64,000 nt of DNA from Mobula hypostoma (taxonomy: Eukaryota), in contig NC_086097.1 of the NCBI RefSeq assembly GCF_963921235.1, positions 62,684,001 to 62,748,000 on the forward strand, written 5' to 3'. Positions 1-59,655 of the stretch are shown piece after piece; position 1 is the stretch's first letter, and every line of letters begins with the position of its first letter. The position numbers and the translations under genes were made by a program. Below the pieces are notes generated by a model that was given only the letters and a program-made list of their open reading frames with translations, searched no databases and had not been told where the DNA came from.

Positions 1-684
1 TCCCCCCTTTGAGCCCTGAACTGTTTGAAGTGATGGACAGGCGATACCCCAGCAGGGGGATAAAAAGGGACAGGTTCGCTAAGACAGACACACACGCCAC
101 CCGAGGTAACGAGACCCTGGAAGCGGTGCGCTTCTCACGAGTGGGTGAGAAGTCCCAGACAACGACAAGGGTGGAAAGGTACGATCAGCGGGAACCCGGT
201 GTGTGTCCGCCCTTGCCTGGGTGCCGGGTTCACTGCAGAGGATCGACCGCATCTGGAGGAGGGGTCACAGTCGGTGACCTCAGGTGACATCACCAAGGAC
301 CTGCCCAAAAGCTGTTTGTGAGCCATCCCGCTGGTCTGTGAGTGAAGCTGCGCTGAATGATGAGTTGTTCTCTCTGTCTCTCTTCCCCCACCTTGTCCAT
401 CGCCATGGCAACGATTACTGCGAACTGAACTGCAAACTGGACTGAACTTTGAGTCATTTTGAAATTGGTCATTTACCCCTAGACAACGATAGAGCTTGAT
501 TGATGCTGTTATCTTAATTCTGTGCACATGTGTGGTTATCATTGTTGAATTGTTGCATTTATTATCCTTTCGATTACTGTGTTGCTTGTTTCTTTAATAA
601 AACTTTCTTAGTTCTAGTACTCCAGACTCCAACTGAGTGATCCATTTCTGCTGGTTTGGCAACCCAGTTACGGGGTACGTAACA
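1..684 (+). repeat. 5' LTR (partial)
   Basis: No mismatch seen by eye against 4061-4744; ends CGTAACA; AATAAA at 596-601. Confidence 0.97.
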
Positions 685-688
685 TAAG

Positions 689-714
689 TGGGGTTCTCGT
701 CCGCGATTTTGAAC
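689..714 (+). promoter_or_regulatory. Primer binding site, tRNA-Pro-like
   Basis: TGGGGTTCTCGTCCGCGATTTTGAAC 4 nt after the LTR, resembling tRNA-Pro complement TGGGGGCTCGTCCGGGATTTGAAC. Confidence 0.8.
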
Positions 715-783
715 GCTAAATTTGGGACGGAGTAAATTGATTGGGTTAAAATTCCCGAAAGAAAGAAAAGACAAACAGCAGAA

Positions 784-3717
784 ATGGAGGTTGAGGAATT
801 TATAAAGGCGCCGACCTTGGAGGCATTAGAGGATGCCAGGAAATCGGAATTGATAGCTGTGGCAAAACGGGTGAATCTTGCTAAGGTGAAGTCGACAATG
901 AGGAGAGAGGAGATACACAGAGCTATTGTAGAGCACTATGTATCTAAAGGTGTGTTTCCCCAAGGTGAGCTGGGGGAGGTGTCTATTGAAAAACCTGCTG
1001 GAGACGCGGTACAGGTACAGCTTGAAAAACTGAGACTCGAGCACGAGTTCCGGGTACGGCAGTTAGAAAGGCAGGAGAAAGAGAGAGAGTTAGAAAGGCA
1101 GGAGAAAGAGAGAGAGTTAGAAAGGCAGGAGAAAGAGAGAGAGTTAGAAAGGCGGGAGAGAGAGAAAGAGGTAGAAAGGCAAGAGAGAGAAAGACAGTTG
1201 GAGAGAGAAGAGAGAGAGAGGGACAGACAGTTGGAGAGAGAAGAGAGAGAGAGGGACAGACAGTTGGAGAGAGAGGAGAAACAGAGGGAAAGGGAATTTG
1301 AGCTGGAGAAGTTAAAGATAAGGGCCGAGCAGGGGCTCGTGCCGAACCAAGGTGGAGGGTTCCGGGCGACCCAGGAGGTTAGGCTGGTTCCCCCTTTTGA
1401 CGATACCGATGTGGATCGGTACTTTCTCCACTTCGAAAAAGTAGCTATAAGTCAGGACTGGCCGAGGGATAAGTGGGTTGTTTTACTTCAGAGTGTACTG
1501 AAAGGGAAAGCCCAACAAGCTTACTCCGCTTTATCCCCGGAAGATGCCCAGAAGTATGAGGTGGTGAAGGAGGCCATCCTCAGGACTTATGAGTTGGTCC
1601 CGGAGGCATACCGGCAGAGGTTCCGGAATGCGAGGAAGCGGTGGGACCGCACGTATTTGGAGTTTGCTCGTGAGATGCAAACATATTGTGAGCGTTGGTG
1701 CGCCTCGTAAGGGGTAGAGGGGGATTACGACAGACTGCTGCAACTGGTTCTGATTGAGCAGTTTAAAGGTTGTGTCCCTGAGGGTATGAGACCCTACCTC
1801 GATGAGAAAGAGGCAGCCACGTTAGCCGCAACTGCTAAGTTAGCGGATGAGTATGCGTTGACGCATAAAATGAAGGTTGCCCCGAGTAAAGGCTACCAGA
1901 AGGGTAGTCAGGACGGCGGGGAGAGTCCGCCGGAAAAGTCAGAAAGTAAGCCGGGGACTAGTGAAAAGGATAAGGTAGACCGGGAGCAATCTGGTAGGAA
2001 GTCTCCTGGGGTCGTCTGTTATAATTGTGGGAAAGCCGGACACTTTGCGTCCAGGTGCTTTGCCCCAAGGAAGGAGACGGGGAAAGGAAAAGCGGAAATT
2101 TTGAATGGCTGTATCGAGCTGTTAAGCGAACCGCTAGGGAAGGACAGGTCTGAAAAAGTCCAGGAAGGGCGCGAGAGGTTTATCTCGGCCGGACTGGTGT
2201 CAGTGAAAAAGAGGTTAAAACCAGTTCCAGTGCGGATCTGGAGAGACACGGGAGCGTGTCAGTCACTAATACTGAAGAGTGTATTAGAGTTTAGCTCAGA
2301 GACCCAGACTGGGGAGGTAGAGGTCAAAGGTGTTGGGGAAGGGACAGAGTCAGTCCCTTTGCACCAGATACATTTGCAGAGCAACCTGGTCTCTGGACTA
2401 GTCACGATTGGGGTGAGGTCCGAATTACCGATGAAAGACGTGGAAGTCTTGCTCGGTAATGACATCGCCGGAGGAATGGTGTTCCCAGTCGTGAGATTGA
2501 CGGGTCAGCCTGCCAGCATGGAGGCCCCGCCCGCGATGGTGAATTTGGCTGAAACATTTCTGCCAGCCTTGTATGAGACAGGGTGTAGTGAGATAAGAGG
2601 TAGTGAGGGAGCTGGGACGGACGTAGCAGTAGCCAGGAAAGAATTTGTGCAGACGCAGGAGCGAGACGAGGGGCTGATGGTTTTGGCCGAGACAGCTCTC
2701 TCTGACACAGCCTTGACAAGCTATTGTGCGGATGAGGAAGTGCTAAGGAAGAAAGGGAAATCAAGTACAGCATCCGCAGATGAGGAGTGGGGGGTGGTGC
2801 AAAAGAGTTATGGGGATGAGGTTTTTAACATGGCCCACGAGGTACCCCCCGGTGGACATTTTGCGGTGCTGGAGGAAACAGTTGGTGGAATCATGAAAGA
2901 GAGTTACCGGCTGCCCAGGGGGAAAAATGTTATTGATCATGACCGACGCGAACTGAGACGGTCACCGGCTTTTGATATGCTAACAAACCTAGTCGGTGTT
3001 AGCGTGGAAATCAATGAAGCTAGGGGCCCCTTGATAAGAGGAAAAAACCATTTTGAAAAGATTAGGATGGGATCGGTCAGATGGGAGAAGGCTATTGTTT
3101 TGGCCAGGTCTACTGATAAGGTCTCTCCCTTAATCCCCGAAGGAGTAATTAAACGACTCGCACCCATGTGTTTGATTGTCCCGAGGAAATGCAAAGAACT
3201 GGGACGTTGGGTTATGTCGGTTACAATAGGGCAGCCAAGTAAACAACACCCATATTTTTTGAGTAATTCAGTGACTAAAGGGCTGATGAACACAGAGGTG
3301 TGTATTGGCAATTTAACACGGCTGTCTGAAGCCAGCTTGATAGTGAACCTTGGAAAAAATGAATTCGGCCACGCGAATGTCACTTACCTGGGAATTGTGG
3401 TGACACAGGGGCAGCTGGCAGTGATGCAAGCTACAGTGCAGGCTATCGCTGACCTCCCAACCCCGACAGACAAGAGGGCCCTCAGAAGGCTTTTGGAGAT
3501 GGTGGGGTACTGCAGGAAGTTTTGCAATAACTCTGCGGTCAATACCCGTCCCCCTCCTACTAAGCCCTTGCGAGGGAAAATTGAGTCGGAATGGGACGAC
3601 CCTTGTTGTTGTGGTCCGGGACAAAACCAAATGAGAGGTTACATTGGTCGCAATTCATCAGTGTTTTTGGCCACTATGAAGTTTGCTGAGTTGGAGCCTG
3701 GTCTAAGGGATTATTAA
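784..3717 (+). pseudogene. gag-pol: gag-protease-vestigial pol polyprotein with one in-frame TAA at 1708-1710
   Basis: ORFs 784..1710 and 1786..3717 share a frame; SCAN-like capsid (YELVPEAYRQRFR...LIEQFK), CYNCGKAGHFASRC at 2017-2058, protease DTG at 2245-2253, integrase His pair at 2836-2859, RT C-terminal motifs (NLGKNEFGHANVTYLG, LRRLLEMVGYCRKF). Confidence 0.9.
1060..1290 (+). repeat. In-frame 27-bp and 33-bp tandem repeats encoding an E/R-rich coiled coil in Gag
   Basis: GAGAGAGAGTTAGAAAGGCAGGAGAAA x3 (ERELERQEK), then RQLEREERERD units. Confidence 0.9.
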
Positions 3718-3877
3718 TAACACGTGTAAAAGGAACAGAAAATGTGATGACTGTCTGTCAAGGTGTTGACAATTTCAAATTCTCTGTATTAGCTAAATAA
3801 CTGTTAAAGATGTATATTGTGTATGTATCAGATAATGTAGTCATGTTTGTAATTTTTACCTCCCGGTAAAAATCCTT

Positions 3878-3889
3878 AAAGGGGGGAAG
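3878..3889 (+). promoter_or_regulatory. Polypurine tract
   Basis: AAAGGGGGGAAG directly before the LTR start TGTTACG. Confidence 0.9.
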
Positions 3890-4744
3890 TGTTACGAGAA
3901 TACACATAAAATTAAGATGTTTGCTGGCCTGGGCTAGCATCAGTGGCATCAGCAGTTGGTCTGCCACCTGCCCTCAGGGGAAGGAGAGATAAGGAACAAT
4001 GGAGCAGCGTCTGGAGATGTGTAATGAAGGGATGTGGGAGGAAGAGCTGTCTGGAGCGGCTCCCCCCTTTGAGCCCTGAACTGTTTGAAGTGATGGACAG
4101 GCGATACCCCAGCAGGGGGATAAAAAGGGACAGGTTCGCTAAGACAGACACACACGCCACCCGAGGTAACGAGACCCTGGAAGCGGTGCGCTTCTCACGA
4201 GTGGGTGAGAAGTCCCAGACAACGACAAGGGTGGAAAGGTACGATCAGCGGGAACCCGGTGTGTGTCCGCCCTTGCCTGGGTGCCGGGTTCACTGCAGAG
4301 GATCGACCGCATCTGGAGGAGGGGTCACAGTCGGTGACCTCAGGTGACATCACCAAGGACCTGCCCAAAAGCTGTTTGTGAGCCATCCCGCTGGTCTGTG
4401 AGTGAAGCTGCGCTGAATGATGAGTTGTTCTCTCTGTCTCTCTTCCCCCACCTTGTCCATCGCCATGGCAACGATTACTGCGAACTGAACTGCAAACTGG
4501 ACTGAACTTTGAGTCATTTTGAAATTGGTCATTTACCCCTAGACAACGATAGAGCTTGATTGATGCTGTTATCTTAATTCTGTGCACATGTGTGGTTATC
4601 ATTGTTGAATTGTTGCATTTATTATCCTTTCGATTACTGTGTTGCTTGTTTCTTTAATAAAACTTTCTTAGTTCTAGTACTCCAGACTCCAACTGAGTGA
4701 TCCATTTCTGCTGGTTTGGCAACCCAGTTACGGGGTACGTAACA
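3890..4744 (+). repeat. 3' LTR, 855 bp
   Basis: TGTTACG...CGTAACA 7-bp terminal inverted repeat; AATAAA at 4656-4661. Confidence 0.97.
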
Positions 4745-4825
4745 CTAGCCACACAGTCATGTGTATATGGAGAGTAGAGCAGTGGGCTAAGCACACACCC
4801 TTGAGGTGAGCCCTGAGGTGGGCAT
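4745..4825 (-). mobile_element. Rex1/Babar LINE RT fragment (insertion site of the LTR element)
   Basis: Minus-strand translation [21 protein letters not shown]. Confidence 0.8.
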
Positions 4826-4939
4826 ATTGAAAGAATAGATAATAAAGAATTACACAATGGAAGTATAGAACACAAAAACGGGTAAACTATGTAGAACCAG
4901 TAAAAAAGGCTAGCTGGAAAATTCTGGTATCTAACTTCA

Positions 4940-5270
4940 GGGTATAAAGATGCAAGAGGGGATGCAGAAATGAGTTTACAAAAATGGTTCCATAAGAATT
5001 TTGATTGTAAGGTCAGCCTGAAGAGTCTGCATTCATTCTTAATGAAAGAAAAATAATTTGAGTGAGCTTCAGAAAATCACGACTGACTTAGATGGAGTAA
5101 GTAGAGAGAAGTGGTTCACAGCAGGACAGGAACACAGATTTAAGATTTTGGAAAGGCACAAACGATTTGAGAGTAGTTATAATTTGGAGGGATGTTGAGA
5201 ATTGAATGTTCACTTGAAAGAGGTTAAGTTGGCTGACTTTAAGGGAAATGAGACTATTGGGTTATTGTTC
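4940..5270 (+). mobile_element. Very decayed CR1 LINE 3' fragment
   Basis: Resembles the CR1 ORF2 end seen more clearly at 6655-7005 and 36770-37200. Confidence 0.5.
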
Positions 5271-6654
5271 AACTTGAGATTACTTTATGATATACAGAGG
5301 GAGTCTCAAGCTACCAGACTGTTAAGAAGGGAATTGCCAGTAATTTCTTGAGAAGCTACCAGTCTTTCTTAGGAAAACTGAGAACAGTAACATGAATACC
5401 ATTTTTTTTTACTGGCTATGCATTCAGCCCAATGATTTGTGTGAGTTTGTTTAACAACTCTTAGACAAACAGAAACTTCCCTGGATTCACTTCACTTGCC
5501 AAAGTTCGTGATTTATTGAGCAACTCTACCCACAGCCAGGATTAGAATTATGATTCTCGCAGCATGGAAGGACAATTAGTGTCATTGCTAGGCAAATACT
5601 CAGACTGTGAATAATCTCAGTCGAAGAATGGATATTCAATTTCATTGCCCTCAGATAGGCTTTGATCTTCTGAGTAATGATACTCACTGATCTAAAGTAG
5701 GAGAGCTGCTGATGGAATTCAATGATATAGATGCTGTGAGGATGGATAGTAACTGCTGATCAATAACCAAAGGGATGTTTTAAACCTAAAGAAATGTTTG
5801 TTCACCAAGTTGAGCTGCTGTTTCAGAGTAGAGGATGCTTTACACTGCCTCCTACACAACTAAATATAATTTGCTTGAAAGTATGTGGCAGGAGTAGCAA
5901 CTTCAATATAAAAGGAGGATAGTATATGATATAATGCAATATGCCGAATGAAGGAAATGCAATAGGTATAATTATTTAAATTAGGGTAATATTGTTTGTT
6001 ACTGACTTAATGTATTTATAAAATTAAATATCAAGAAAATTAAGCAGTTAAAACTGAACACTCCCTCCGGTCTACATTTCTGATGATGGATATGGCATGA
6101 CTCAAAGCTGTATTCATCCTCTGTTTATTCACTAAATAGAGACTTTTCATTCTATAAAATATCAGTTCCACACATTCCCTTTTCAGTGTAATTCACCCCA
6201 AAAAAAATTAAATAGATCTTTATTTCTTATATGTTTCCCATTGATGATCCCTGACTTATATTACACTAACTGAGAACACTTAATATTCCTCTTCATCAGT
6301 CTGAAGATGGGCAGTGGTGGTGTTGGTGGGTTGTGGCAGGGGGGTACCGTGGAAGAGAAGTTTGTCCCATTGGTCTGGATTTACAGAGCTATGAACTTAT
6401 CCCATACTTACTTGATGTATGGTTACAAAATGGACTGCAGGAATAAAGCCTCCTCCATCTAGACAGTGAGACCTACCATCATGTCCTTGCCTCATTGTAA
6501 TTGGGTTTGAACAAGCTCCACCCATGGAACTGCACAAAAACCTTTGGCAGGTTCAAAGCCCAGGCCCTGGTTCACCGTCTGTCAAAATTATCAGTGCTTC
6601 TTTTAGTATTTGATATTCAGAAGTACCCAAAAACCATTCATAGTGAAGTAACCA

Positions 6655-11135: not shown

Positions 11136-11296
11136 AGTTCTGCTCCATACACATGCAGATCAGAATCATGCATTGAGCAAATCTACCACACAAGAAGTAA
11201 ACAACAGGAATTCTGCAGATGCTGGAAATTCAAGCAACACACATCAAAGTTGCTGGTGAACGCAGCAGGCCAGGCAGCATCTATAGGAAGAGGCGC

Positions 11297-11332
11297 AGTC
11301 GACGTTTCAGGCCGAGACCCTTCGTCAGGACT
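11297..11332 (-). ncRNA. Minimal type I hammerhead ribozyme
   Basis: AGTC CTGACGA AGG-gtctcgg-CCT GAAA CG TC GACT: stem I AGTC/GACT, CUGANGA and GAAA cores, GUC cleavage triplet. Confidence 0.85.
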
Positions 11333-11842
11333 AACTGAAGGAAGAGTGAGTAAGGGATTTGAAAGCTGGAGGGGGAGGGGGAGATGCAAAATGATAGGAG
11401 AAGACAGGAGGGGGAGGGATAGAGCCGAGAGCTGGACAGGTGATAGGCAAAAGGGGATACGAGAGGATCATGGGACAGGAGGTCCGGGAAGAAAGACGGG
11501 GGGGGGAGTGACCCAGAGGATGGGCAAGAGGTATATTCAGAGGGACAGAGGGAGAAAAAGGAGAGTGAGAGAAAGAATGTGTGCATAAAAATGAGTAACA
11601 GCTGGGGTACGAGGGGGAGGTGGGGCCTAGCGGAAGTTAGAGAAGTCAATGTTCATGCCATCAGGTTGGAGGCTACCCAGACGGAATATAAGGTGTTGTT
11701 CCTCCAACCTGAGTGTGGCTTCATCACCTGTCACCTGTCCAGCTCTCAGCTCCATCCCTCCCCCTCCTGTCTTCTCCTATCATTTTGCATCTCCCCCCTC
11801 CCCCTCCAGCTTTCAAATCCCTTACTCACTCTTCCTTCAGTT

Positions 11843-11878
11843 AGTCCTGACGAAGGGTCTCGGCCTGAAACGTTGACT
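11843..11878 (+). ncRNA. Minimal type I hammerhead ribozyme
   Basis: AGTC CTGACGA AGGGTCTCGGCCT GAAA CG TT GACT; GUU triplet. Confidence 0.8.
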
Positions 11879-11951
11879 GCGCCTCTTCCTATAGATGCTG
11901 CCTGGCCTGCTGCGTTCACCAGCAACTTTGATGTGTGTCACAAGAAGTAAA

Positions 11952-13702: not shown

Positions 13703-14753
13703 TATATAGTGAGTCTGCAGGCCACCTGGAGAAGGATACATTTAATCCAACTCTTTGTTTCCTGTCTTGTGCTTTAATCTTCCATATTAACCTCTTCAAT
13801 GAGAGTTTGCTGAAATCTCTCTTAACATTCGTACCCACATTCCCTCCATCCAATTTAAAGAAAATCTAGTACCTTTATCAAGCATGAATTTTCTTTCACT
13901 TATCCAAATCATATTAAACTGATCTTGTTACTGTTTTCTAAAATGCTCCACTGTTACTTTTTTAAATAATTGACTCAGCATTTCTCTCTCTACCGATGTC
14001 TGGTTAAGCGAACTATAATTCCCTGTTTTCTCTCTTCTTCCTTTTCTTAAATAGCAAGACTGCATTAGCTACTCTGATCCGTGGGAAAGTATCTGTAGTA
14101 TAAAAGAATGCTGGAGAATTACCAACTATGTGGCATGGTAGCATAGTGGTTGGCATAATGCTATTACAGCACTCGATGAAAAATTGGAGGCTTGAATCCC
14201 ACCACTGTCTGTAAGGAGTTTCTATATTAACTCTTCTCAGGCTTCCAGCTGGATGCAGGTATTAGTTTTAACCTACATTTTAATGACAATCCCTGCCATC
14301 TTCATCAAGGATGATGCCTGGGCATGTCTAGTCTGATACTATATATACTCCCATCATCCGTCCTTCCTGATTAGTTAGTCCTCACCCAATCAACTTTCCA
14401 CTGTCACACCTCGTTTACAATTGAGTGTCAGTTCTTACTTACAGTGAGACCTTCGTGTTTGTTAAAATTCTTTTCCTCTAGTTTTATTCCAATACATCCA
14501 CATGGCATCTATTAGAAACCCATTTACACAGACTTACACCTCAACAATAACAGCCACTATCATGCCTCCCAAAGTAAAGTGGTTCTTTCTATTGTGTTTA
14601 ACTGTGAAAACTATTTCAGTCCTGGAGGGTCTCCACAGGAAATAAGACGATTATGCACAACGTTCCTACCAAATGACTACAAGATGAAAGAGATCAATTG
14701 GGCCCTTAAAAAGGTCAACAGACAAATCAGGAAACCTAACAACAAGGAGGAGC

Positions 14754-15310
14754 AACACACATCAAAGTTGCTGGTGAACGCAGCAGGCCAGGCAGCATCT
14801 ATAGGAAGAGGCGCAGTCGACGTTTCAGGCCGAGACCCTTCGTCAGGACTAACTGAAGGAAGAGTGAGTAAATGAGTAAGGGATTTGAAAGCTGGAGGGG
14901 GAGGAGGAGATGCAAAATGATAGGAGAAGACAGGAGGGGGAGGGATAGAGCCGAGAGCTGGACAGGTGATAGGCAGAAGGGGATACGAGAGGATCATGGG
15001 ACAGGAGGTCCGGGAAGAAAGACGGGGGGGGGGGTGACCCAGACGATGGGCAAGAGGTATATTCAGAGGGACAGAGGGAGAAAAAGGAGAGTGAGAGAAA
15101 GAATGTGTGCATAAAAAAGAGTAACAGATGGGGTACGAGGGGGAGGTGGGGCCTAGCGGAAGTTAGAGAAGTCAATGTTCATGCCATCAGGTTGGAGGCT
15201 ACCCATACGGAATATAAGGTGTTGTTCCTCCAACCTGAGTGTGGCTTCATCTTTACAGTAGAGGAGGCCGTGGATAGACATGTCAGAATGGGAATGGGAT
15301 GTGGAATTAA
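14754..15310 (-). mobile_element. Young Neptune-type Penelope-like fragment
   Basis: Nearly identical to 11235-11725; TSD AACAAGGAGGAGC at 14741-14753 and 15311-15323. Confidence 0.92.
14815..14850 (-). ncRNA. Minimal type I hammerhead ribozyme
   Basis: Identical to 11297-11332. Confidence 0.85.
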
Positions 15311-16000: not shown

Positions 16001-17489
16001 TCAATCTGGAGAGTATGTTCATTATATACATTTTCAATCTGTCCCTGGCCCAGGCAGCTGTCCCCACAAGCTTCAAGATCACCACCATCGTGCCAGTGCT
16101 GAAGCATTTCACTGCCACCGGCCTGAATGACTTCCGCCCAGTTGCACTCACCCTCATAATTGCAAAGTGCTTTGAGAGACTGGTTCTGTCACATCTGAAA
16201 TCCTGTCTGCCCACTACCCTGAAGCACTATCAATCTGCCTATCACACCAACAGGTCAACAAAGGACACCATCTCCACGGCATTTCACTCTGCCCTGACCC
16301 ACCTGGACAGCCCCAACTCTTACGTCAGAATGCTGTTCATTGACTTTAGTTCGGCATTCTATACTATAATCCCCTCCAAGCTGATCGCCAAACTTCACCA
16401 GCTTGGTATCAGCTCATCCCTCTGCAACTGGACCTTGGACCTTCTGACTAACAGAACTCAATCAGTTAAATAGACAACCTCTCCTCCTCCACTCTCACCC
16501 TGAACACCGCCGTGCCTCAAGGCTGTGTGCTGAGCCCTCTTCTTTACTCCCTTTTCACCTATGACTGTGTTCCCGTACATGGTTCTAACTCCATAATCAA
16601 GTTCGCAGACGACACTACAGTGGTTGGCCTGATCAGAGGGGATGACAAGACGGACTACAGGGAAGAGGTCCAGCACCTGGCCACGTGGTGTGCCAACAAC
16701 AACCTGGTCCTTAACACCCAGAAGTCCAAGGAGATCATTGTGGACTTCAGGCATGCTAGGAGCTACACTCACGTCCCCATCTACATCAACGGAGCTGTAG
16801 TGGAGCGTGTATCAAGCTTCAAATTCCTTGGTGTCCACATTTCTGAGGATCTCACCTGGTCCCTGAACTCCTCTATCCTGATCAAAAAGACACAACAGCG
16901 CCTTTATTTCCTGCGGAGAATGAAGAAAGCTCACCTCTGTCCCAGGATACTGACGGAATTTTACCACTGTACGATTGAGAGCATACTCACCAACTGCATC
17001 TCAGTGTGGTATGGCAATTGTCCTATATCGGACAGCAAAGCACTCCAGCGTGTGGTGAAAACGGCCCAGCAGATTACTGGCACCCAATTGCCCATCATTG
17101 AGAACATCTACCATAAACGCTGCCTGGGCAGGGCGAAAAGCATTATCAAGGATGCATCTCACCCTAACCATGGACTTTTTTACTCTCCTCTCATTCGGTA
17201 GGCACTACAGGAGCCTCCGCTCCCGCACCAGCAGGCACAGGAAGAGCTTCTTCCCTGAGGCTGTGACCCTGCTGAATCTCACATCACAGCGCTCGCAGTA
17301 TTGCACCCATATTGTACTGTCTCAGTACTTTTATATTTGTGTGCTGTAGCACTTACTTTTTATTTTCTGTTATTTTGTAAATAACAGTATTCTTCGCATT
17401 TCTGGTTAGATGCTAACTGCATTTCATTGGCTTTGAATCTGTACTCAGCACAATGACAATAAAGTTGAATCTATCTAATCTAATCTAAT
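16001..17489 (+). mobile_element. Rex1/Babar LINE, 5'-truncated (RT and 3' UTR)
   Basis: [41 protein letters not shown] then (CTAAT)n tail. Confidence 0.95.
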
Positions 17490-18779: not shown

Positions 18780-18916
18780 TATCCCATCTTGTTGCATGGA
18801 CAAAAATCTATCCCAGAAAGTCCAAACTTTAAGAAAGATCTAATTAAGTAGGGCAGCAAAAATGCCGTTCACTTTGGATTACTTTCCGATTTACTAACCT
18901 ATCATGTCCCTAAGTA

Positions 18917-19050
18917 ACAGGAATTCTGCAGATGCTGGAAATTCAAGCAACACACATCAAAGTTGCTGGTGAACGCAGCAGGCCAGGCAGCATCTCTAGG
19001 AAGAGGTACAGTCGACGTTTCAGGCCGAGACCCTTCAGCAACTTTGATGT
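18917..19050. mobile_element. 134-bp Neptune-type mini insertion with a 15-bp inverted end
   Basis: TSD ATGTCCCTAAGTA at 18904-18916 and 19051-19063; CAGCAACTTTGATGT inverts ACATCAAAGTTGCTG. Confidence 0.85.
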
Positions 19051-19989: not shown

Positions 19990-20802
19990 GCAATTATCCT
20001 TGTAAGCGGAACAAGTGCTACACATGCCCTTACACAACCTCCCTCACCACCATTCAGGGCCCCAGACAGTCCTTCCAGGTGAGGCGAGACTTCACCTGTG
20101 AGTCGGCTGGGGTGATATACTACATCCGGTGCTCCTGATGTGGCCTTCTATATATTGGCGAGACCCGACGCAGACTGGGAGATAATTTCGCTGAACACCT
20201 ACGCTCTGTCCGCCAGAGAAAGTGGGATCTTCCAGTGGCCACACATTTTAATTCCACGTCCCATTCCCATTCTGATATGTCTATTCACGGCCTCCCCTAC
20301 TGTAAAGATGAAGCCACACTCAGGTTGGAAGAACAACACCTTATATTCTGTTTGGGTAGCGTCCAACCTGATGGCATGAACATTAACCTCTCAAACTTCC
20401 GCTAATGCCCCACCTCCCCCTCATACCCCATCTGTAATTTATTTATATACATACATTCTTTTTCTCTCTCTCTCCTTTTTCTCCCTCTGTCCCCCTCACT
20501 AAACCTGTTGCCCACCCTCTGGTTTTCCCCCCCTCCCCCTTCTCTTTCTCCCTAGGCCTCCTGTCCCATGATCCTCTCATATCCCTTTTACCAATCACCT
20601 GTCCAGCTCTTGGCTCCATCCCTCCCCCTCCTGTCTTCTCCTATCATTTCAAATCTCCCCCTCCCCTTCCCACTTTCAAATCTCTTGCTAGCTCTTCTTT
20701 TAGTTAGTCCTGACGAAGAGTCTCAGCCCGAAACGTCAACTGTACCTCTTCCTAGAGATGCTGCCTGGCCTGCTGCATTCACCGGCAACTTTTGTGTGTG
20801 TT
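19990..20802 (+). mobile_element. Neptune-type Penelope-like 3' fragment encoding the GIY-YIG endonuclease
   Basis: Frame 19995-20405: YPCKRNKCYTC...GVIYYIRCS*CGLLYIGETRRRL...EQHLIF...PDGMN; TSD ACAAGAAGGT at 19980-19989 and 20803-20812. Confidence 0.92.
20706..20741 (+). ncRNA. Hammerhead ribozyme with intact core and mismatched stems
   Basis: AGTC CTGACGA AGAGTCTCAGCCC GAAA CG TC AACT. Confidence 0.6.
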
Positions 20803-20829
20803 ACAAGAAGGTAGGTAACACCTTTCAAT

Positions 20830-29027: not shown

Positions 29028-29965
29028 ATAGTCATAGTCATAGTCATTATCATACTTTATTGATCCCGAGGGAAATTGACTTTCGTTACAGTTGCACCTT
29101 AAATAATTAAATAGTAATAAAACCATAAATAATTAAATAGTAATATGTAAATTATGCCAGGAAATAAGTCCAGGACCAGCCTATTGGCTCAGGGTGTCTG
29201 ACCCTCCAAGGGAGGAGTTGTAAAGTTTGATGGCCACAGGTAGGAATGACTTCCTATGACGCTCTGTGTTGCGTCTCGGTGGAATGAATCTCTGGCTGAA
29301 TGTACTCCCGTGTCCACCCAGTATATTATGTAGTGGATGGGAGACATTATTCAAGATGGCATGCAACTTGGACAGCATGCTCTTTTCAGACACCAACGTA
29401 AGAGAATCCAGTTCCATCCCCACAACATCACTGGCCTTACGAATGAGTTTGTTGATTCTGTTGGTGTCTGCTACCCTCAGCCTGCTGCCCCAGCACACGA
29501 CAGCAAACATGATAGCACTGGCCACCACAGACTCGTAGAACATCCTCAGCGTCATCCGGCAGATGTTAAAGGACCTCAGTCTCCTCAGGAAATAGAGATG
29601 GCTCTGACCCTTCTTGTAGACAGCCTCAGTGTCCTTTGACCAGTCCAGTTTATTGTCAACTCGTATCCCTAGGTATTTATAATCCTCCACCATGTCCACA
29701 TTGACCCCCTGGATGGAAACAGGGGTCGCCGGTACCTTAGCTCTCCTCAGGTCTACCACCAGCTCCTTAGTCTTTTTCACATTAAGCTGCAGATAATTCT
29801 GCTCACACCATGTGACAAAGTTTCCTACCGTAGCCCTGTACTCAGCCTCATCTCCCTTGCTGATGTATCCAACTATGGCAGAGTCATCAGAAAACTTCTG
29901 AAGATGACAAGACTCTGTGGAGTAGTTGAAGTCCGAGGTGTAAATGGTGAAGAGAAAGGAAGACA
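29028..29965 (-). mobile_element. Rex1 LINE 3' portion inserted in gag
   Basis: ORF 29181..30008: LQKFSDD, YKYLG; (ATGACT)n tail; probable TSD AGAATT at 29022-29027 and 30317-30322. Confidence 0.93.
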
Positions 29966-30311
29966 TGTTGCAAGAACATGGCTGGGGACGAACCCAAGTG
30001 CAGGACACAGATGCTGAGGCAGAGTCGTTAGGCGTAGCCCCTCCGCGAACGGGGAGTCAAATCCAGGAGACGATGCGAAGCTTAGAACTAACAGTTTTCA
30101 GGAATAGGAAACAGGGTATGCTCTCACAAGAGTCGACCAACGAACTGGTGGCTTCTTGCTGTGGTCACAGGGTTTTTATCCTACCATTTGATGGGAAGCA
30201 GGTGCGTGTAGTTACTGGTACTTGGGAATGATTGGAATCTAAATGAGGTGATCGAGGCCCAAATCTTGAGGCAAATGGCAAGGTGGGGGATTGCTAGACG
30301 GGACCATGACA
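29966..30311 (-). mobile_element. Solo LTR, 346 bp
   Basis: Minus strand TGTCATGGTCC...CAACA; TSD AGACA at 29961-29965 and 30312-30316. Confidence 0.85.
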
Positions 30312-33300
30312 AGACAAGAATTCTAAGGTAGTATCCGACCTTACTTCTCTGGTGAATAAATGGAAAAATCAGATTCCAAGTCCCAGCTATAGCAGGCTCT
30401 GCCTATTCTCTGGAATAACGCCCACCCCTAAAGAGAAGGAGGAGTATGAGACGTGGGCAGAACGGACCTGTCAATTGTTAGATAAGTGGCAGTGCTCGGA
30501 TGTTGAAAAGCGACAGAGATTAGTGGAAAGTTTGAATGGACGTGCCGCTGACGTCAGAACTGTCAGGTTAAATTATCCCATAGCGACAGCTGTCAATTAT
30601 CTGCAAGCACTGGACAATGTTTTTGGTCTGACTGGAAGTCCAATGGAGCTTTGACATTTGGTGGGGTTTCAGAACATGCGTCAGGAGAAGGGGGAGAAGC
30701 TTTCTGCTTTTATTTTTCGGCTAGAGAGGCAGCTAAATTGCTTGCGGCACAGAGGGGTCATTCAGGCAGCTGAGGTGGATCAGTTAAGAATGGACCAGAT
30801 AGCCAGAGGGGCCCAGTCCCATGACTGGATTGCGTGGGGTCTCTGACAGTCTTGTAAGACACGCCCCCCTCCATCTTTTGTTGAGCTGATCAGAGAGGTA
30901 CGGGAAGAGGAGGACTCGGAGAAGGTGTGGAAGGACTCAGTCAGCAGGGTACAATGCTCGGTAGTGGAGCCCTGTGGTGAAGTGACCACAGATAGCTTAC
31001 CCCAGGGAGCAGTATAGGAGATAGTGGCAGAGTTGAGAACAAAGATACATCAGCTGTTATCAGCGGGTGTGACCCCCCCCACATGATGGTGCTGATGGGG
31101 GGGCAGATTCCCCAAGGGGACGGACAATGTGGAGGGCTGCTGGAAGAAGGTGTCACACCAGAAGGAGAGTGAGCCCCTGGATACCTCAGCAGGGAGAGTC
31201 GCTGGGAAAACTTAAAGGAGACCCAGTGAGGGAACAGCCTGGTGTCTCTGGGGGAACACGTTCCCAGCAATGTACCAAGGAACTCTCGAAAGCAAAAGAC
31301 CCTATTCCTGAAGGCTTAGTGGGACCACGCTCCAGTGTGTCACTACGATAGAGGGTATTTACGCTAAAGCCATACTCGACACCGGGTCACAGGTCACGTT
31401 ACTGTACCGTTTGTTTTACAACCAGTATCTGAAGCATTTACCCTTGATGCCATTCAATGCACTGGAGATTTGGGGTCTCAGTGCTGCTGATTATCCATAT
31501 GATGGTTATTTGTCAGTGAAACTGGAATTCTTGGAGGCCGATGTGGGAGTGTCTGAGGTTCTTGATACAGTGGTACTGGTTTGTCCAGACCCTGATGAGA
31601 CGGGAGGCATTTCAATTCTGGAAGGGACTAACACCCCTCTTGTGAGGAGGCTCATGGGGGCCTGCAAGGTGAAGATGGGTGAGAGCTTTTTGGGGACATT
31701 GTCCGTGCACCCAGTGTTTTGAGCTGCTTTTGAGGAAGTGCATGGCAGCATTGGACCAGGTACCAAATTTAAACGAGGGACTGTGTGGTTCACCCAGTCG
31801 AAGCCAATGGTCATACGGCCCAGGGAAGTAGCGAGAGTGATGGGGACCTCCAAATTTCCTGGCGTGCCTTAGGGTAAAGCCCTCTTAGTGGACGCTCCGG
31901 AAGGCCACGAGGGAGAGTCAGGATTTCCTGCTGAGGTACTGGTGAGGTCCGAATTGCAGAAGCCCTCAGTTGTACAGATGAGCAGGATGGCAGTGATCGT
32001 CAGGAACACCATGAAGAGGAAGGGCACCTTCAAGCAGGGGATGCCCCTGGCGCATTTGTTCCCAGTGACAGTAATGTCCAGTGCCCCTATGAGGCACGCC
32101 AGGGAGAAACTATTGGAAAAGTGGGGAAAGTTGACCACTGAGTCTTCAACTTCGGGGACTCCCCGGTGCCACTGGGTTGGAAAAGGAGACTGGTAGAGAA
32201 GATATTGAAGCCGGAAGGTGTCTTTTCCATTGGCGAGTTTGATGTGGGTTGTTTCAAGAGCACTCGTCACACTCTCTGGGTGACAGAGGACACCCCGTTT
32301 AGAGAGAGGTCGCGGCGACTGGCCCTTGCAGACGTGGAAAATGTGTGGCAGCATTTGTGTAAGTTGACGGAAGCTGGGATCATCACTGAGTCCCGAAGCC
32401 CCTATGTGTCCCCGATAGTAGTGGTCCAGAAGAATGGGAAGGTACACATGTGTGTGGACTATAGGACTCTGAACAGGCACACCGTCCCTGACCGGTATAC
32501 GGTCCTGAGGGTCGAAGACGCGCTGGCCTGTCTGAGTGGTGCAAGGTGGTTCAGTGTGCTGGATTTGAGGAGTGGATATTACCAGATCCCCATGAGTGAG
32601 GCCGACAAAGAGAAGACAGTATTTATGTTTCCTGGGATTCTTCCAGTTTGAAAGGAAGCCCCAGGGCTTATTGGGAGCCCCTGCAACATTCCAGCAGGTC
32701 ATGGAGAAGACGGTGGGGGATATGAATTTGCTTGAGGTGTTGGTGTATTTGGATCCACCTTGGAGGAACGTGAAGCGAGGCTGCTGAAGGTGCTCAGCCA
32801 CCTGAAAGCTGAAGGGTTAAAACTTTCTCTGGGCTAGTGCCACTTCTGCAAAACATCTGTTAGCTATGTCGGCACATAACCTCATGGATGGAGTAGCAAC
32901 AGACCCGGCTAAGATAGAAGTGGTAACCACTTGGCCAAGGCCTCAGACTGTGAGCACTCTGCGCTTGTTCCTCGGGTTCTGTGGTTATTATCGCAGATTC
33001 GTGAAGGGCTACACCGAAATGAATGACCCCTTGAATCAGCTTCTGTGTAGTTACCCTCCCCTGGGGAGAAAAGGACAGGAGGGTGGAGAATACCTAAACC
33101 TGTCAGAGCCCTTTGGACAGAGGTGGGATGTAAAATGTGAGGAGGCCTTTCAGTCACTGAAGGAACTGCTGAGCCAGTTCTGGTGCTGGCTTTTGTGGAC
33201 CCCGATTGCTGTATGTACTGCACATAGATCCAGCCGAGAGGGTTTAGGGGGTGTCCTGTATCAGGATTAGGGCACCAGGTTGAGGCCTGTGGCATTTGTC

Positions 33301-39149: not shown

Positions 39150-40337
39150 TACATTTTATACTTTATACTATATTGTCGCCAAACAATTGGTACTAGAACG
39201 TACAATCATCACAGCAACACTTGATTCTGTGCTTCACACTCCCTGGATTACAAATATTAAATATTAAAGATATTAAAAAGTTAAAATTAGTAAATATTAA
39301 AAATTTAAATTATAAATCATAAATAGAAAATAGAAAAATGGGAAGTAAGGTAGTGCAAAAAAACCGAGAGTCAGGTCCAGATATTTGGAGGGTACGGCCC
39401 AGATCCAGGTCAGGATCTGTTCAGCAGTTGAAAAGAAGTTGTTCCCAAATCTGGCCGTACGAGTCTTCTAGCTACTGAACCTTCTCCCGGAGGGAAGAGG
39501 GACGAAAAGTGTGTTGGCTGGGTGGGTCGTGTCCTTGATTATCCTGGCAGCACTGCTCTGACAGCTTGCAGTGTAAAGTGAGTCCACGGACGGAAGATTG
39601 GTTGGTGTGATGTGCTGCGCCATGTTCACGATCTTCTGCAGCTTCTTTTGGTCTTGGAGAGGACAACTTCCATACCAGGTTGTGATGCACCCTAGAAGAA
39701 TGCTTTCTACAGTGCATCTATAAAAATTAGTGAGGGTTTTAGGGGACAGGCCAAATTTCTTTAGTTTTCTCAGGAAGTAAAGGCGCTGGTAGGTCTTCTT
39801 GGCAGTGAACTCTGCTTGGTTGGACCAAGTCAGGTCATTTGTGATATTAACCCCAAGGAACTTAAAGCTTTTGACCTGTTCCACTTGCGCACCACCGATG
39901 TAAATTGGGTTGTGCGGTCCGCTACTCCTTCTAAAGTCAACAACCAATTCCTTCGTCTTGCTGACGTTGAGGGATAGGTTATTGTCTTCACACCATGCCA
40001 CCAGGTTCTTAATTTCCTCTCTGTACTCAAACTCATCATTACCCGAGATACGGCCTACAATTGTTGTGTCATCAACAAACTTGTATATTGAGTTTGACGG
40101 AAACTTGGCTACACAATCATGGGTGTACAGTGAGCACAGCAGGGGGCTGAGTACACAGCCTTGTGGGGCACCGGTGCTCAGTGATTGTAGAGGAGAGCTT
40201 GTCCCCTATTTTTACAGCCTGGGTCCTGTCTGTGAGGAAGTTGAAGATCCAGCTGCAGATCTGAGTACTAAGGCCCAGGTTCTGGAGCTTAGGAATCAGT
40301 TTATTTGGAACGATGGTATTAAAGGCAGAGCTGTAGT
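39150..40337 (-). mobile_element. Rex1 LINE RT and 3' end
   Basis: [36 protein letters not shown]. Confidence 0.93.
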
Positions 40338-55380: not shown

Positions 55381-55899
55381 TGGTAATAATTTACTTATTT
55401 TTACTCTGCTATGAAGCTTTGAATGAATAGTGGTGTCGTTACACTTTTCTAATGGGAATGATCAGCTTGCCCATCAGTCATTCATAGAAGTCTAACTTTT
55501 TTGTTTTTGTGCCCTTATCCTCCCATGAAATCCAACTGGAAGCACCAGAAGATAAGACTTTAATTGGACTTGTGCCAAGTATAAATCAATAAAAAAATTG
55601 CATACTGTAGCGGTGTGCTACACACAGCGCTAGAATAACCACACGGAGTCGGTGAGTTGGAGTTGCGATGAAAGAGGTTTATTCAAACTTCGCGGCCTGC
55701 TTTAAAGCCTTCCCATTCCTGCCCTCCCTGGGCGGAACTGCTGTGGGGAAAGCATATTCCCAGACCCTTTCCGTGCACGGGATTTTCCCCCTGCTGGTGA
55801 AGATGGCCTGGTGCCCTTTTTGGGGCCGGCCTCTCTGCCGGCGCGCTGGTTCATATGTGCTAGAAAGTGGGTCGCCACATAATGCCCCCGCCCCCATAA

Positions 55900-58800
55900 C
55901 CGGCGATACCTTCCCCCAATGTCCACAGTCTGGATTGGCCTCTGTTTGGGAGGGCTGTCCCTGTGCCGCGGTGCCTGAGCCTGGACCGGCTGCGCCAAGT
56001 CCACATGGGCCGGTTTGAGTCGGTCCACCGTGAAATCCTTTTCTCTCCCCCCAATGTCCAGCACGAACATGGACCCGTTGTTCCTGATCACCTTAAATGG
56101 CCCCTCGTAGGGCCGCTGTAGCGGTGCCCGGTGTCCGCCCCGTCGTACAAAAAGAAACTTACAGTTCTGCAGGTCTTTGGGTACGCAGGTCGGGCTCTGT
56201 CCGTGCTGTAAAGTGGGTACGCGGGCCAGGTTACCGAGCCTCTCCCGTAGTCTGTCCAGGACTGCTGTGGGTTCTTCCTCTTGCCCCCTTGGGGCTGGTA
56301 TGAACTCTCCTGGGACTACCAGGGGTGTGCCGTACACCAACTCAGCCGACAAGGTGTGCAGATCTTCCTTGGGCGCCGTGCGGATTCCGAGCAGGACCCA
56401 GGGAAGCTCGTCCTCCCAGTTAGGCCCCTCCAGGCGGGCCATGAGAGCCAGCTTCAGATGATGGTGGAAACACTCCACTAGTCCGTTCGATTGTGGGTGG
56501 TAGGCAGTTGTGTGGTGTAGCTGCGATCCTAAAAGGCTGGCCATAGCTGACCACAGGCTGGAGGTGAACTGGGCACCCCTGTCGGAGGTAATGTGGGCCG
56601 GTACCCCGAAGCGTGCTACCCAGGTTGTGATCAGCGCTCGGGCGCAGGATTCAGAGGTGGTGTCGATGAGCAGGACTGCCTCTGGCCATCTGGTGAACTG
56701 GTCTATCATAGTTAGGAGGTACCGCGCTCCTCGTGACACTGGCAGGGGCCCCACGATATTCACATGAATGTGGTCGAACCTCCGGCGGGTGGGTTCGAAC
56801 TGCTGCGGCGGAGCCTTGGTGTGCTGCACCTTGGCCGTTTGGCACGGCATGCACGTTTTGGCCCATTCACTGACCTGTTTACGCAGCCCATGCCACACGA
56901 ACCTGTTGACGACTAGCCGGACGGTTGTCCTGATGGAGGGGTGCACTAAGTTGTGAATGGAGTCGAAAACCCGCCGGCGCCAGGCTGCTGGGACAACGGG
57001 GCGGGGTTGGCCGGTAGCTACGTCACATAGTAGGGTCCTCTCACCTGGGCCTACGGGGAGGTCTTGGAGCTGCAAACTGGAGACTGCAGTCCTGTAACTG
57101 GGGATCTCAGCGTCTGCCTGCTGTGCCTCTGCCAGCGCTGCATAGTCCACCCCCTGGGACAGGGCCTGTATGGTAGGTCTGGATAGTGCATCCGCCACGA
57201 CGTTGTCCTTTCCCGAGACATGCCGGATGTCCGTCATGTACTAGGAGATGTAGGACAGATGTCGCTGCTGGCGGGACGACCAGAAGTCGGACACCTTTGT
57301 GAACTCAAAGGTAAGCGGTTTGTGGCCTGTAAATGTGGTGAAGGGCCTACCTTCTAAGAAGTACCTGAAATGCCGGATTGCCAGGTATAGTGCCAATAGC
57401 TCCTGGTCGAAAGCACTGTATTTGAGTTCGGGTGGTCGTAGGTGTTTGCTGAAGAACGCCAGGGGTTGCCAGGGACCCTCGATGAGTTGTTCCAGTACTC
57501 CACTGACTGCTGTGTTGGATGCGTCCACCATGAGGGCAGTAGGAACGTCCGTTCTGGGGTGCACTAGCATCGCGGTGTTTGCCAAAGCTTCTTTGGTTTT
57601 ACCGAAAGCGGCTGCAGCCTCTTCGTTCCAGGTAATGTCCTTGCCCTTACCCGACATCAGAGTGAACAGTGGGTGCATGGTTCGGGCTGCTGAGGGGAGG
57701 AAACGGTGGTAGAAATTCACCATACCCACAAATTCCTGCAGGCCTTTGATTGTGTTGGGTCTGGGGAAGTGGCAGACCACATCTACCTTGGTGGGCAGAG
57801 GGGTTGCCCCGTCTTTAGTAATCCTGTGGCCCAGGAAGTCGATGGTGTTGAGTCCGAACTGGCATTTGGCTGGGTTGATTGTAAGGCCAAATTCGCTCAG
57901 GTGAGAGTAGAGCTGGCGGAGGTGGGACAGATGCTCTTGACGACTACTGCTGGCTATGAGGATGTCGTCCAAGTAGATGAATGCAAAGTCCAGGTCGCGT
58001 CCCACCACGTCCTTTAGCCGCTGGAACGTCTGTGCGGCATTCTTTAGACCGAACGGCATTCGGACGAATTTGAAAAGTCCAAACGGGGTGATGAGTGCTG
58101 TTTTAGGGATGTCATGAGGATGTACGGGATTTGATGGTATCCCCGGACGAGGTCTACCTTGGAAAAGATCCTTGCGCCGTGTAGGTTTGCTGCAAAGTCT
58201 TGAATGTGCAGCACAGGGTAGCGGTCTGACGTTGTATCCTCGTTCAGTCTGCGTTGTCACTGCATGGTCTCCAGCCCCACCGTTGCCTTGGGCACCATGT
58301 GCAGAGGGGAGGCCCATGGGCTGTCGGACCGTCGTATGATCCCCAATTCCTCCATCTTCTTGAACTCCTCCTTCGCCAGTCGGAGCTTGTCCGGGGGAAG
58401 CCTTCAAGCACGGGCGTAGAGGGGTGGTCCCTGGGTCGGGATGTGGTGCTGTACTCCGTGTCTGGGCATGGCTGCCATGAACTGCGGTATCAGTACTGAT
58501 GGGAAATCCGCCAGGACCCTGGTGAATTTGTCGTCGGACAGCGTGATGGAGTCCAGGTGTGGGGCTGGCAACTTTGCTTCACCCAGGGAGAACATTTAAA
58601 AAGTCTTGGCGTGGACTAATCGCTTCCCTTGCAGGTCGACCAGCAGGCTGTGGGCTCGCAGAAAATCCGCCCCCAGGAGTGGTTGGGCCACTGCGGCCAG
58701 TGTGAAGTCCCACGTGAACCGGCTGGAGCTGAACTGTAGCCGCACCGTGCGGGTGCCGTAGGTCCGTATTATACTGCCATTTGCGGCCCTCAGGGTGGGT

Positions 58801-59617
58801 CCGGGTTCTCTGTTGCAGGTGTTGTAACTCGTTGGAGGTAAAACGTTGATCTCTGCTCCGGTGTCGACCAAAAATCAGCGTCCTGACTGCTTGTCCCAGA
58901 TGTACAGGAGGCTGTCTTGATGGCCAGCCGCAGTAGCGATCGGCGGCGGCTGGGCCTTGGCGTTTCCCGGGAATTTACAGGGTGGTCTACAGCGGCGGGC
59001 CTCTGTGCCCCACCCCCCTGGTGGTAGAAGCACCATTGTTCACTGGGCTCTGCTGCCGGGCCTGGTCTGGTCTGTCGTTGGGCACGCGGCTTGCTGATCT
59101 GTTCGACGGATGCCCCTCTCTCCTTCTTGGCATTCCACAGCACATCTGCCCGGGCTGCCACCTCCCAGGGGTCACTTAAATCTGTGTCGGACAGCAGCAG
59201 GCATATGTCCTCGGGCAGTTGCTCTAGGAACGCCTGCTCAAACATGAGGCAGGGTTTATGTCCTTCAGCCAGGGCCAGCATCTCGTTCATTAGTGCTGAC
59301 GGTGGCCTGTCTCCCAAACCAACCAGGTGCATTAAGCGGCGTGCTCATTCACGCCGTGAGAGTCCGAAGGTCCTTATGAGCAGGGCTTTGAATGCTGTGT
59401 ATTTGCCGTTCTCCGGGGGCGACTGTATAAACTCCTCAACTTGTGCAGCAGTCTCCTGGTCGAGGGAGCTCAGCACGTAGTAGTAGCGAGTGGACTCCGA
59501 GGTTATCTGCCGAATGTGGAATTGTGCTTCTAACTGTTCCAACCACAGACGGGGTAGCAGCAGCCGAAAGCTTGGAAGTTGTAATGAAACTGCGTAAACA
59601 GATGCGGCGTCGGTCAT
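55900..59617 (-). pseudogene. gag-pol: gag-pol (protease, RT, RNase H, integrase) with a few stops and frameshifts
   Basis: VDTGAE, MPFGLKNAAQTFQR, YLDD, DAS...ELLA, HNLVHP...CMPC, TSDRG, PYEGPF. Confidence 0.93.
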
Positions 59618-59641
59618 CTCTGGCCCAAATATCGTTTGGGC

Positions 59642-59655
59642 CGTCAGGGTCACCA
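59642..59655 (-). promoter_or_regulatory. Primer binding site, tRNA-Trp-like
   Basis: TGGTGACCCTGACG versus tRNA-Trp complement TGGTGACCCCGACG. Confidence 0.85.

Follow-up and report, generated by a model that had tools for sequence, protein, structure and literature searches.

The window analysed here, a 64,000-nucleotide stretch of the Mobula hypostoma genome (contig NC_086097.1), opens within an LTR retrotransposon that raises a simple question: why does an element with a heavily deleted and catalytically dead pol region keep a single reading frame open for some 400 codons beyond its protease? As judged from sequence comparison, the best reading of this element is a copy of a non-autonomous Gmr1-type Ty3/Gypsy LTR retrotransposon family in devil rays (Mobula), and all of its homologues are of the Gmr1 type. 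Below we describe the element and its relatives, separate the selection acting on its residues from that acting on its frame, and weigh the possible explanations of the open tail.

Structure of the element

The following features were delineated in the window.

1..684, + strand: 5' LTR, 3' part only, identical to 4061-4744; its 5' end lies beyond the window start
689..707, + strand: probable primer-binding site, assigned from sequence, 4 nt past the LTR
784..1710, + strand: gag N-terminal part with most of the capsid, closed by a premature TAA (1708-1710)
1050-1300, + strand: E/R/K coiled-coil repeat in gag, built of 27- and 33-nt units
1711..1870, + strand: SCAN-like capsid C-terminal domain, second half (Pfam SCAN, E 0.0014)
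2017..2058, + strand: CCHC zinc knuckle (Pfam zf-CCHC, E 2.4e-5)
2171..2480, + strand: aspartic protease with its DTG at 2245-2253; none of 15 conserved sites has changed
2481..2949, + strand: spacer, then the N-terminal relic of integrase with the His pair at 2836-2859; junction of a ~294-codon integrase deletion at 2949
2950..3260, + strand: relic of the integrase C-terminal end and the RT N-terminus; junction of a ~129-codon RT deletion near 3260
3261..3606, + strand: RT palm-thumb relic holding the dead YxDD (CIGN, 3301-3312); a deletion of 18 codons comes next
3607..3717, + strand: RNase H relic past an 87-codon deletion, in frame up to 3681 and shifted after it; family stop at 3715-3717
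3682..3769, + strand: remains of the RNase H C-terminus, out of frame and broken by three frame-shifting deletions; the old stop is at 3767-3769
3878..3889, + strand: polypurine tract, assigned from sequence
3890..4744, + strand: 3' LTR of 855 bp with TG...CA, 7-bp inverted ends and AATAAA at 4656
4745..4810, + strand: 3' flank, a LINE RT fragment that was the insertion target of the element

The element sequence thus has LTR ends of the form TG...CA, a primer-binding site and a polypurine tract. The primer-binding site, with mismatches, presumably resembles a tRNA-Pro site; a tRNA gene search found none. The internal region (685-3889, 3205 bp) has the 3.2-kb size given in the original prediction, and the whole element amounts to ~4.9 kb (855 + 3205 + 855). 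The target-site duplication is not visible, since the 5' flank falls outside the window. The zinc knuckle and the protease DTG lie where they had been placed, and a Pfam search of the element gave no integrase, RT or RNase H match.

The window copy itself is broken. Gag had been described as intact; an in-frame TAA at 1708-1710, within the capsid, leaves one piece of 308 aa (784-1710) and another of 668 aa (1711-3717). Because of this stop, the capsid C-terminus, zinc knuckle, protease and tail are lost to translation from the copy's own start codon. The TAA is missing from unbroken sibling models, and the window copy is a dead end or a passenger. The predicted non-autonomous family supplying its own Gag and protease therefore stands at the level of the family and does not hold for the window copy, with its gag stop.

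The LTRs were correctly said to show no mismatch over 684 bp (1-684 compared with 4061-4744). The further claim of a very young insertion was overstated: 0/684 bounds the LTR divergence at 0.44%, which corresponds to ~2-22 My if the yearly rate is assumed to lie between 1e-9 and 1e-10. A mutation rate of 7e-10 per generation, i.e. a slow one, has been reported for a shark (PMC10587355), and because of this slow rate and the 0.44% bound, great youth is not established in years.

The Mobula family

The best protein matches of the element are Mobula hypostoma RefSeq models, up to 98% identical across the whole 668 aa, followed by matches from M. birostris, Hypanus and Hemitrygon. The sibling models are 95-98% alike and lie on different chromosomes, with the same deletions and the same family stop. 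The copy is not unique, as the original prediction required: the integrase-deletion junction was found in 20 of the 40 Mobula models examined, and these sit on contigs that differ widely in length. The outcome for random frameshifts among siblings was mixed, in a family that is known from RefSeq protein models and public runs and whose annotated models favour open frames: 11 of the 20 junction-bearing models reach the stop of the window copy and nine end early. Fifteen of the 20 are not full length, and five run unbroken from the Gag start to the stop (939-1004 aa); in one of the unbroken siblings, P0001, the Pfam SCAN match reaches E 3e-11. Two models, P0003 and P0004, have a common early end ~90 codons short of the family stop, and their frameshift was either copied or recurrent. 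The same stop is present in both Mobula species and in subfamilies that are 24% apart.

In public sequencing runs, contigs from two organisms cover the element. In run X1, its summed contig depth exceeds that of the single-copy flank by four orders of magnitude, a figure that is not a copy number. Contigs of run X5 span the integrase and RNase H junctions (2720-3017 and 3385-3892) with 1 and 5 differences, respectively, and a net 42-nt in-frame deletion at 2686-2730 was seen in three runs. Runs X7 and X5, which may be RNA runs, gave no cover of the flank 4920-5800, and a search of viral and metagenome contigs gave no related loci.

The Gag-protease tree of the retrieved proteins (38 rows, none left out) is ladder-like, and the window copy falls in its youngest group. 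The full-length relatives P0056 and P0061 encode a SCAN-like capsid, protease, integrase, RT and RNase H in a single frame, and a SCAN-like capsid with the order protease, integrase, RT, RNase H is given as the Gmr1-like organisation (bioRxiv 10.1101/2025.03.03.638093). No intact helper was found among the proteins retrieved: of the near-intact relatives, P0011 breaks in the integrase, and P0233 is without the first catalytic RT Asp. A search for a long Mobula partner matched no Mobula protein of at least 1170 aa and gave four non-ray matches, which is weak evidence. An earlier account of a non-autonomous Gmr1 family in rays was absent from the literature searched, which was mostly open-access and without Repbase/Dfam.

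Several RefSeq ray models carried under host-gene names are this element.

Stepwise decay of the pol region

Beyond the protease 415 codons are open, in line with the ~400 predicted, and the same 1230 nt contain 32 stops in each of the two other forward frames. The relics follow the order IN-N, IN-C, RT and RH (mapped on P0011, P0234, P0233 and P0061). The integrase relic retains its His pair, with neither CxxC nor core, exactly as first noticed. The RT thumb relic is 61% identical to P0233. The assignment of CIGN to the RT YxDD register proved right, since it aligns with YIDD of the Mobula RT model P0233 and YIGD of the intermediate P0059. RNase H had been reported missing; 87 aa of it are indeed deleted, whereas part of its C-terminus is still there, readable in frame over 3640-3681 and out of frame as far as 3769. 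Today's stop precedes the old one by 50 nt.

Across the models the YxDD position reads YIDD (n = 1), YIGD (n = 1), CIGD (n = 2) and CIGN (n = 13), and the deletions were added stepwise along this series, with the less-deleted relatives preserved. Aligned with the near-intact ray proteins P0011, P0017, P0233 and P0234, all alignable blocks of 2481-3681 stand in one frame and are separated by 13 gaps (in codons: -21, -7, -4, -5, +1, ~-294, -7, -6, +1, ~-129, -18, +1 and -87). The three largest correspond to the integrase core (~-294, sized on P0061), RT (~-129) and RNase H (-87); two further gaps, of 3 residues in the IN-RT linker and of 1 residue within the protease, stand outside the count of 13. 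Since several of these gaps are retained by older subfamilies, the relic deletions arose one after another. About 410 of ~1030 post-protease codons remain, ~600 having been eroded so far. P0234 also gave a weak Pfam score for TcdB_N (E 0.005), which fell short of the cut-off and was taken as chance.

Selection on residues and on the frame

Comparison of residues set Gag-protease apart from the pol relic. At conserved sites, defined across long intact homologues, 1 of 47 had changed in Gag-protease versus 14 of 42 in the integrase and RT relics (p 9e-5); intact controls gave 1/26 and 1/18. Lineage-specific changes in the window copy and a near-intact relative stood at 3:4 in CA and 14:10 in PR, and at 48:6 in IN-N and 28:5 in RT; NC showed an excess too with one outgroup (13:3), and a second outgroup gave 3:5. 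Within the two relics, conserved sites were changed about as often as variable ones (7/26 versus 27/69, and 7/16 versus 41/89). Among 16 common coding variants, which were drawn from 40 listed of 366 rows by the tool's own choice, 7 of 10 were synonymous in Gag-protease and 0 of 6 in the tail (p 0.011), the neutral expectation being 29%. This pattern shows purifying selection on the predicted Gag and protease. Because of the losses at conserved sites in the relics, the skewed lineage-specific changes and the absence of synonymous tail variants, the tail residues appear free of constraint. The similar rate of change at conserved and variable relic sites disfavours a repurposed tail, one of the roles originally suggested. 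An AlphaFold2 model of the protease with the tail (mean pLDDT 29.9) failed on the protease too and is uninformative on the tail.

The frame behaves differently from the residues. Every one of the 13 alignable gaps in 2481-3681 spans a whole number of codons, for which the chance expectation is (1/3)^13 = 6e-7, or 1.7e-5 when the three one-codon gaps are set aside; these gaps were read at the protein level, where hidden compensating pairs are possible. In the last 90 nt, all three gaps shift the frame (p 0.002), and the second and third of these may be later than the first. The 76-130 neutral replacements in the tail would be expected to create 3-6 stops, and none is present (P 0.03-0.003). Indels in the LTRs measure 1, 2 or 4 nt, and local indels are therefore without bias to threes. 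The claim that the frame is kept open beyond chance is borne out, and statistically only those changes that let the ribosome reach ~50 nt from the old stop appear to have been passed on.

Selection can thus be split by sequence alone into three parts: (i) residues of Gag and protease are kept, (ii) residues of the tail are free, and (iii) the frame of the tail is kept. The family is, by all appearances, a clean natural case of a frame selected apart from the protein sequence, and a reminder that a long open frame alone is no proof of a functional protein.

A parallel tail in stingrays

The stingray models, which come from this Gag-protease stock, group in a separate clade with support 100/100. 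In 11 of 12 cases the distal tail matches the capsid C-terminus and protease of the stingray element itself, in none of the 12 does it match pol, and the zinc knuckle and catalytic motif of this duplicate are gone. In four stingray models, 407-433 codons are open beyond the protease up to a common end, compared with 415 in Mobula. The two tails are a convergence, unlike in content and similar in open length. Together with the preserved intermediates, this independent lineage backs up the split of selection described above.

We tentatively suggest a rule for non-autonomous Ty3/Gypsy elements of rays, which we hold to be quite possible though short of probable: ~400 post-protease codons may hold anything, provided that translation runs on to the vicinity of the old stop. 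The contents would be worn-down pol in Mobula, a duplicated and dead Gag-protease in stingrays, and perhaps captured host exons in other families. If true, the rule would constitute a natural, replicated case of selection in cis for translation itself, by way of RNA surveillance or translation-coupled packaging, in vertebrate LTR retrotransposons. It would also account for elements that build in-frame chimeric genes.

Possible explanations of the open tail

On balance we lean towards selection for termination close to the old stop, irrespective of the tail's coding content, likely acting through survival of the RNA. The proposed sequence of events is as follows: (i) the lineage would have lost its integrase, RT and RNase H activity early and gone on making its own Gag and protease; (ii) the enzymes of a related element would copy the family in trans; (iii) the unspliced RNA would double as Gag message and genome; (iv) an early stop would extend the 3' UTR from ~1 kb to 2-3 kb, with long-3'UTR nonsense-mediated decay or failed translation-coupled packaging as the probable result; (v) the remainder of pol, whose folding would no longer be needed, could be worn down stepwise; and (vi) the tail protein would be a by-product, probably cleaved off by the protease. 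Some 0.95 kb separate the stop and the poly(A) signal (4656), a distance that would be ~2.2 kb were translation to end past the protease. Unspliced retroviral RNAs with early stops are described as subject to nonsense-mediated decay unless insulated (PMC2925335; PMC5580461). The RNA fold of 3700-3900, after the stop, is no better than that of shuffled sequences (z -0.37). Counting against termination as the selected property, nine of the 20 junction-bearing models end early and the window copy, with its identical LTRs, is gag-broken. The early-ending siblings fit decay after insertion, and tolerated propagation fits equally. All this suggests that what the element may need is being translated to the end, and not the protein made.

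A Gag-protease-tail fusion could instead work in cis, through the spacer, IN-N or RT thumb remains of its tail or through sheer bulk, by co-assembly with a helper Pol, by protease activation or by capture of its own RNA; we regard this explanation as unlikely, yet worth serious attention. The fusion made by mouse IAP 1Δ1 is reported to aid retrotransposition in cis (PMC7411935, PMC6466679), the RT thumb relic retains its 61% identity, and tail lengths of 415 and 407-433 codons fit a requirement for protein size as well as one for RNA size. Such a function is hard to reconcile with the loss of conserved relic sites about as often as variable ones, with the unrelated stingray tail, and with P0003 and P0004, which are without the thumb end.

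It is improbable that the pol relic owes its retention to RNA signals (for packaging, dimerisation or minimal genome length) that ribosomes need to unfold or clear, no decay being involved. The cutting back of the tail in many small steps, not in one, agrees with this idea, and defective-interfering RNAs are reportedly translated with no need of the sequence; the stingray lineage, however, swapped most of the same region.

We give slightly less credence still to an unselected frame, a product of chance, of a bias to whole-codon deletions or of picking cases with open frames. The early ends in nine of 20 models and the broken gag of the window copy speak for it, and small indels are visible through proteins only. 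Against this, in the raw window DNA 13 of 13 gaps are in frame versus three of three shifting at the end, 76-130 replacements have left no stop, the stop is common to subfamilies 24% apart and to both Mobula species, and the LTR indels show no preference for threes.

Finally, a domesticated Gag-protease gene under host selection, in place of a mobile family, would explain the purifying selection on Gag-protease and the existence of RefSeq models, but it is extremely improbable and was rejected in view of the dispersed, near-identical and LTR-bounded copies (15 of 20 not full length), the ladder-like tree and the insertion into a LINE.

Comparison with known systems

With Gmr1-like elements the Mobula element shares the SCAN-like capsid, CCHC knuckle, protease, integrase-before-RT relics, single frame and LTR/PBS/PPT layout, and it is 39% identical over capsid-protease to a full-length polyprotein of the tilapia cluster. 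It differs in the in-frame loss of the integrase core, most of RT and RNase H, and in its dead YxDD. Autonomous Gmr1 membership fails on these deletions, on CIGN and on the lack of integrase, RT and RNase H Pfam matches.

Among LTR elements, non-autonomous ones are common, and a precedent for a translated, deleted gag-pol that can matter in cis is IAP 1Δ1. Like the Mobula family, it is non-autonomous, very successful and equipped with an in-frame deleted gag-pol fusion (in Mobula, the fusion is that of the siblings); translation of this fusion is reported to matter in cis (PMC7411935, PMC6466679). IAP 1Δ1 belongs to the class II ERVs, has lost parts of gag and pol through a single 1.9-kb deletion and depends on Gag supplied in trans, whereas the Mobula family, with homologues that are all Gmr1-type Ty3/Gypsy, has selected Gag and protease, 13 gaps and tail residues that look unconstrained. 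By analogy, IAP 1Δ1 would be a closer parallel than either of the two originally drawn, TR-GAG and MaLR, and a cis effect may operate here as well.

The comparison with plant TR-GAG elements was fair in that both are non-autonomous LTR elements with a Gag frame and a zinc knuckle. TR-GAG elements are characterized in PMC4350172 as being <4 kb and without protease, integrase, RT or RNase H similarity; the defining features, size and Gag only, are absent from our element, which was excluded from the group by its ~4.9 kb, intact protease, 415-codon pol relic and RT thumb with 61% identity to P0233. The MaLR comparison turned out to be weak. Both are LTR elements of vertebrates that depend on an autonomous relative for movement (in Mobula, presumably so), and MaLRs are described as ERV-L related, with mere traces of retroviral homology (PMC6466679, PMC5131818). 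MaLR membership was rejected, as the Mobula element has no ERV-L ancestry and possesses a protease and a pol relic, which MaLRs are without.

A more distant parallel comes from RNA viruses. Defective-interfering RNAs of coronaviruses and arteriviruses are said to require an open frame and not its particular sequence. They too are helper-dependent genomes in which deletions keep a frame open whatever the product, and they differ in belonging to cytoplasmic RNA viruses in culture, while the Mobula family is a retrotransposon that evolves in the germ line over millions of years.

The presence of open and early-stop copies in one genome makes RNA surveillance testable as a filter on retrotransposon genomes. 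The same material bears on whether surveillance biases gene capture to in-frame fusions; LTR-borne retrocopies are reported to be often in frame, which has been put down to their youth (PMC5131818).

Gag repeat, insertion site and divergent positions of the main element

Three features in and around the main element, a non-autonomous Gmr1-type copy, were delineated:
689-707, probable primer-binding site (from the sequence)
1050-1300, E/R/K coiled-coil repeat of Gag, in 27- and 33-nt units
4745-4810, LINE RT fragment, host of the main element insertion (from contig alignments)

The E/R/K repeat differs in length between the Mobula siblings in whole units, giving protein sizes of 939-1004 aa. 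The primer-binding site looks like an imperfect match to a tRNA-Pro site. Among the contigs from public sequencing runs around the insertion, hundreds continue the LINE on both sides. At five positions (1728, 1989, 2376, 3575, and 4073), nearly all aligned contigs disagree with the window copy; the change at 4073 is older than the insertion, because this position sits in both of the identical LTRs.

Models under host-gene names and the stingray lineage

Six of the retrieved proteins, the unbroken Mobula sibling P0001, P0014, P0043, P0048, and the near-intact ray relatives P0233 and P0234, are retrotransposon frames, though their RefSeq names come from host genes (MACC1, PISD, UBE2G2, PPM1L, HSPBAP1, and TRIC channel). 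These models are probably intronic element copies mis-called as isoforms.

Proteins P0019-P0030, P0035, and P0036 of Hypanus sabinus and Hemitrygon akajei form a second non-autonomous Gmr1 lineage. In place of pol, they carry a dead in-frame duplicate of their own capsid C-terminus and protease, and the frame stays open for 407-433 codons past the protease. Their tails diverge faster than Gag-PR, with identities of 71-76% versus 78-88%.

Other elements of the window

The second Ty3/Gypsy element has the standard order, with LTRs of ~277 bp that are 92% alike and a stop that separates RT-RH from integrase. The remaining repeats and frames are listed with it:
11237-11938, tail-to-tail inverted repeat pair, arms of 145 nt at 99% and 77 nt at 94%
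14751-15251, 18916-19036, 20246-20810, copies related to the 11237-11938 repeat
16470-17198, 29184-30056, 39471-40205, LINE RT fragments, then a domain called ALKBH8_N by Pfam
31872-32816, minus strand, open reading frame of 315 codons within GC-rich DNA, without a match in the Pfam search
55606-59934, minus strand, second Ty3/Gypsy element
55705-57240, minus strand, its integrase
57244-58578, minus strand, its RT-RH
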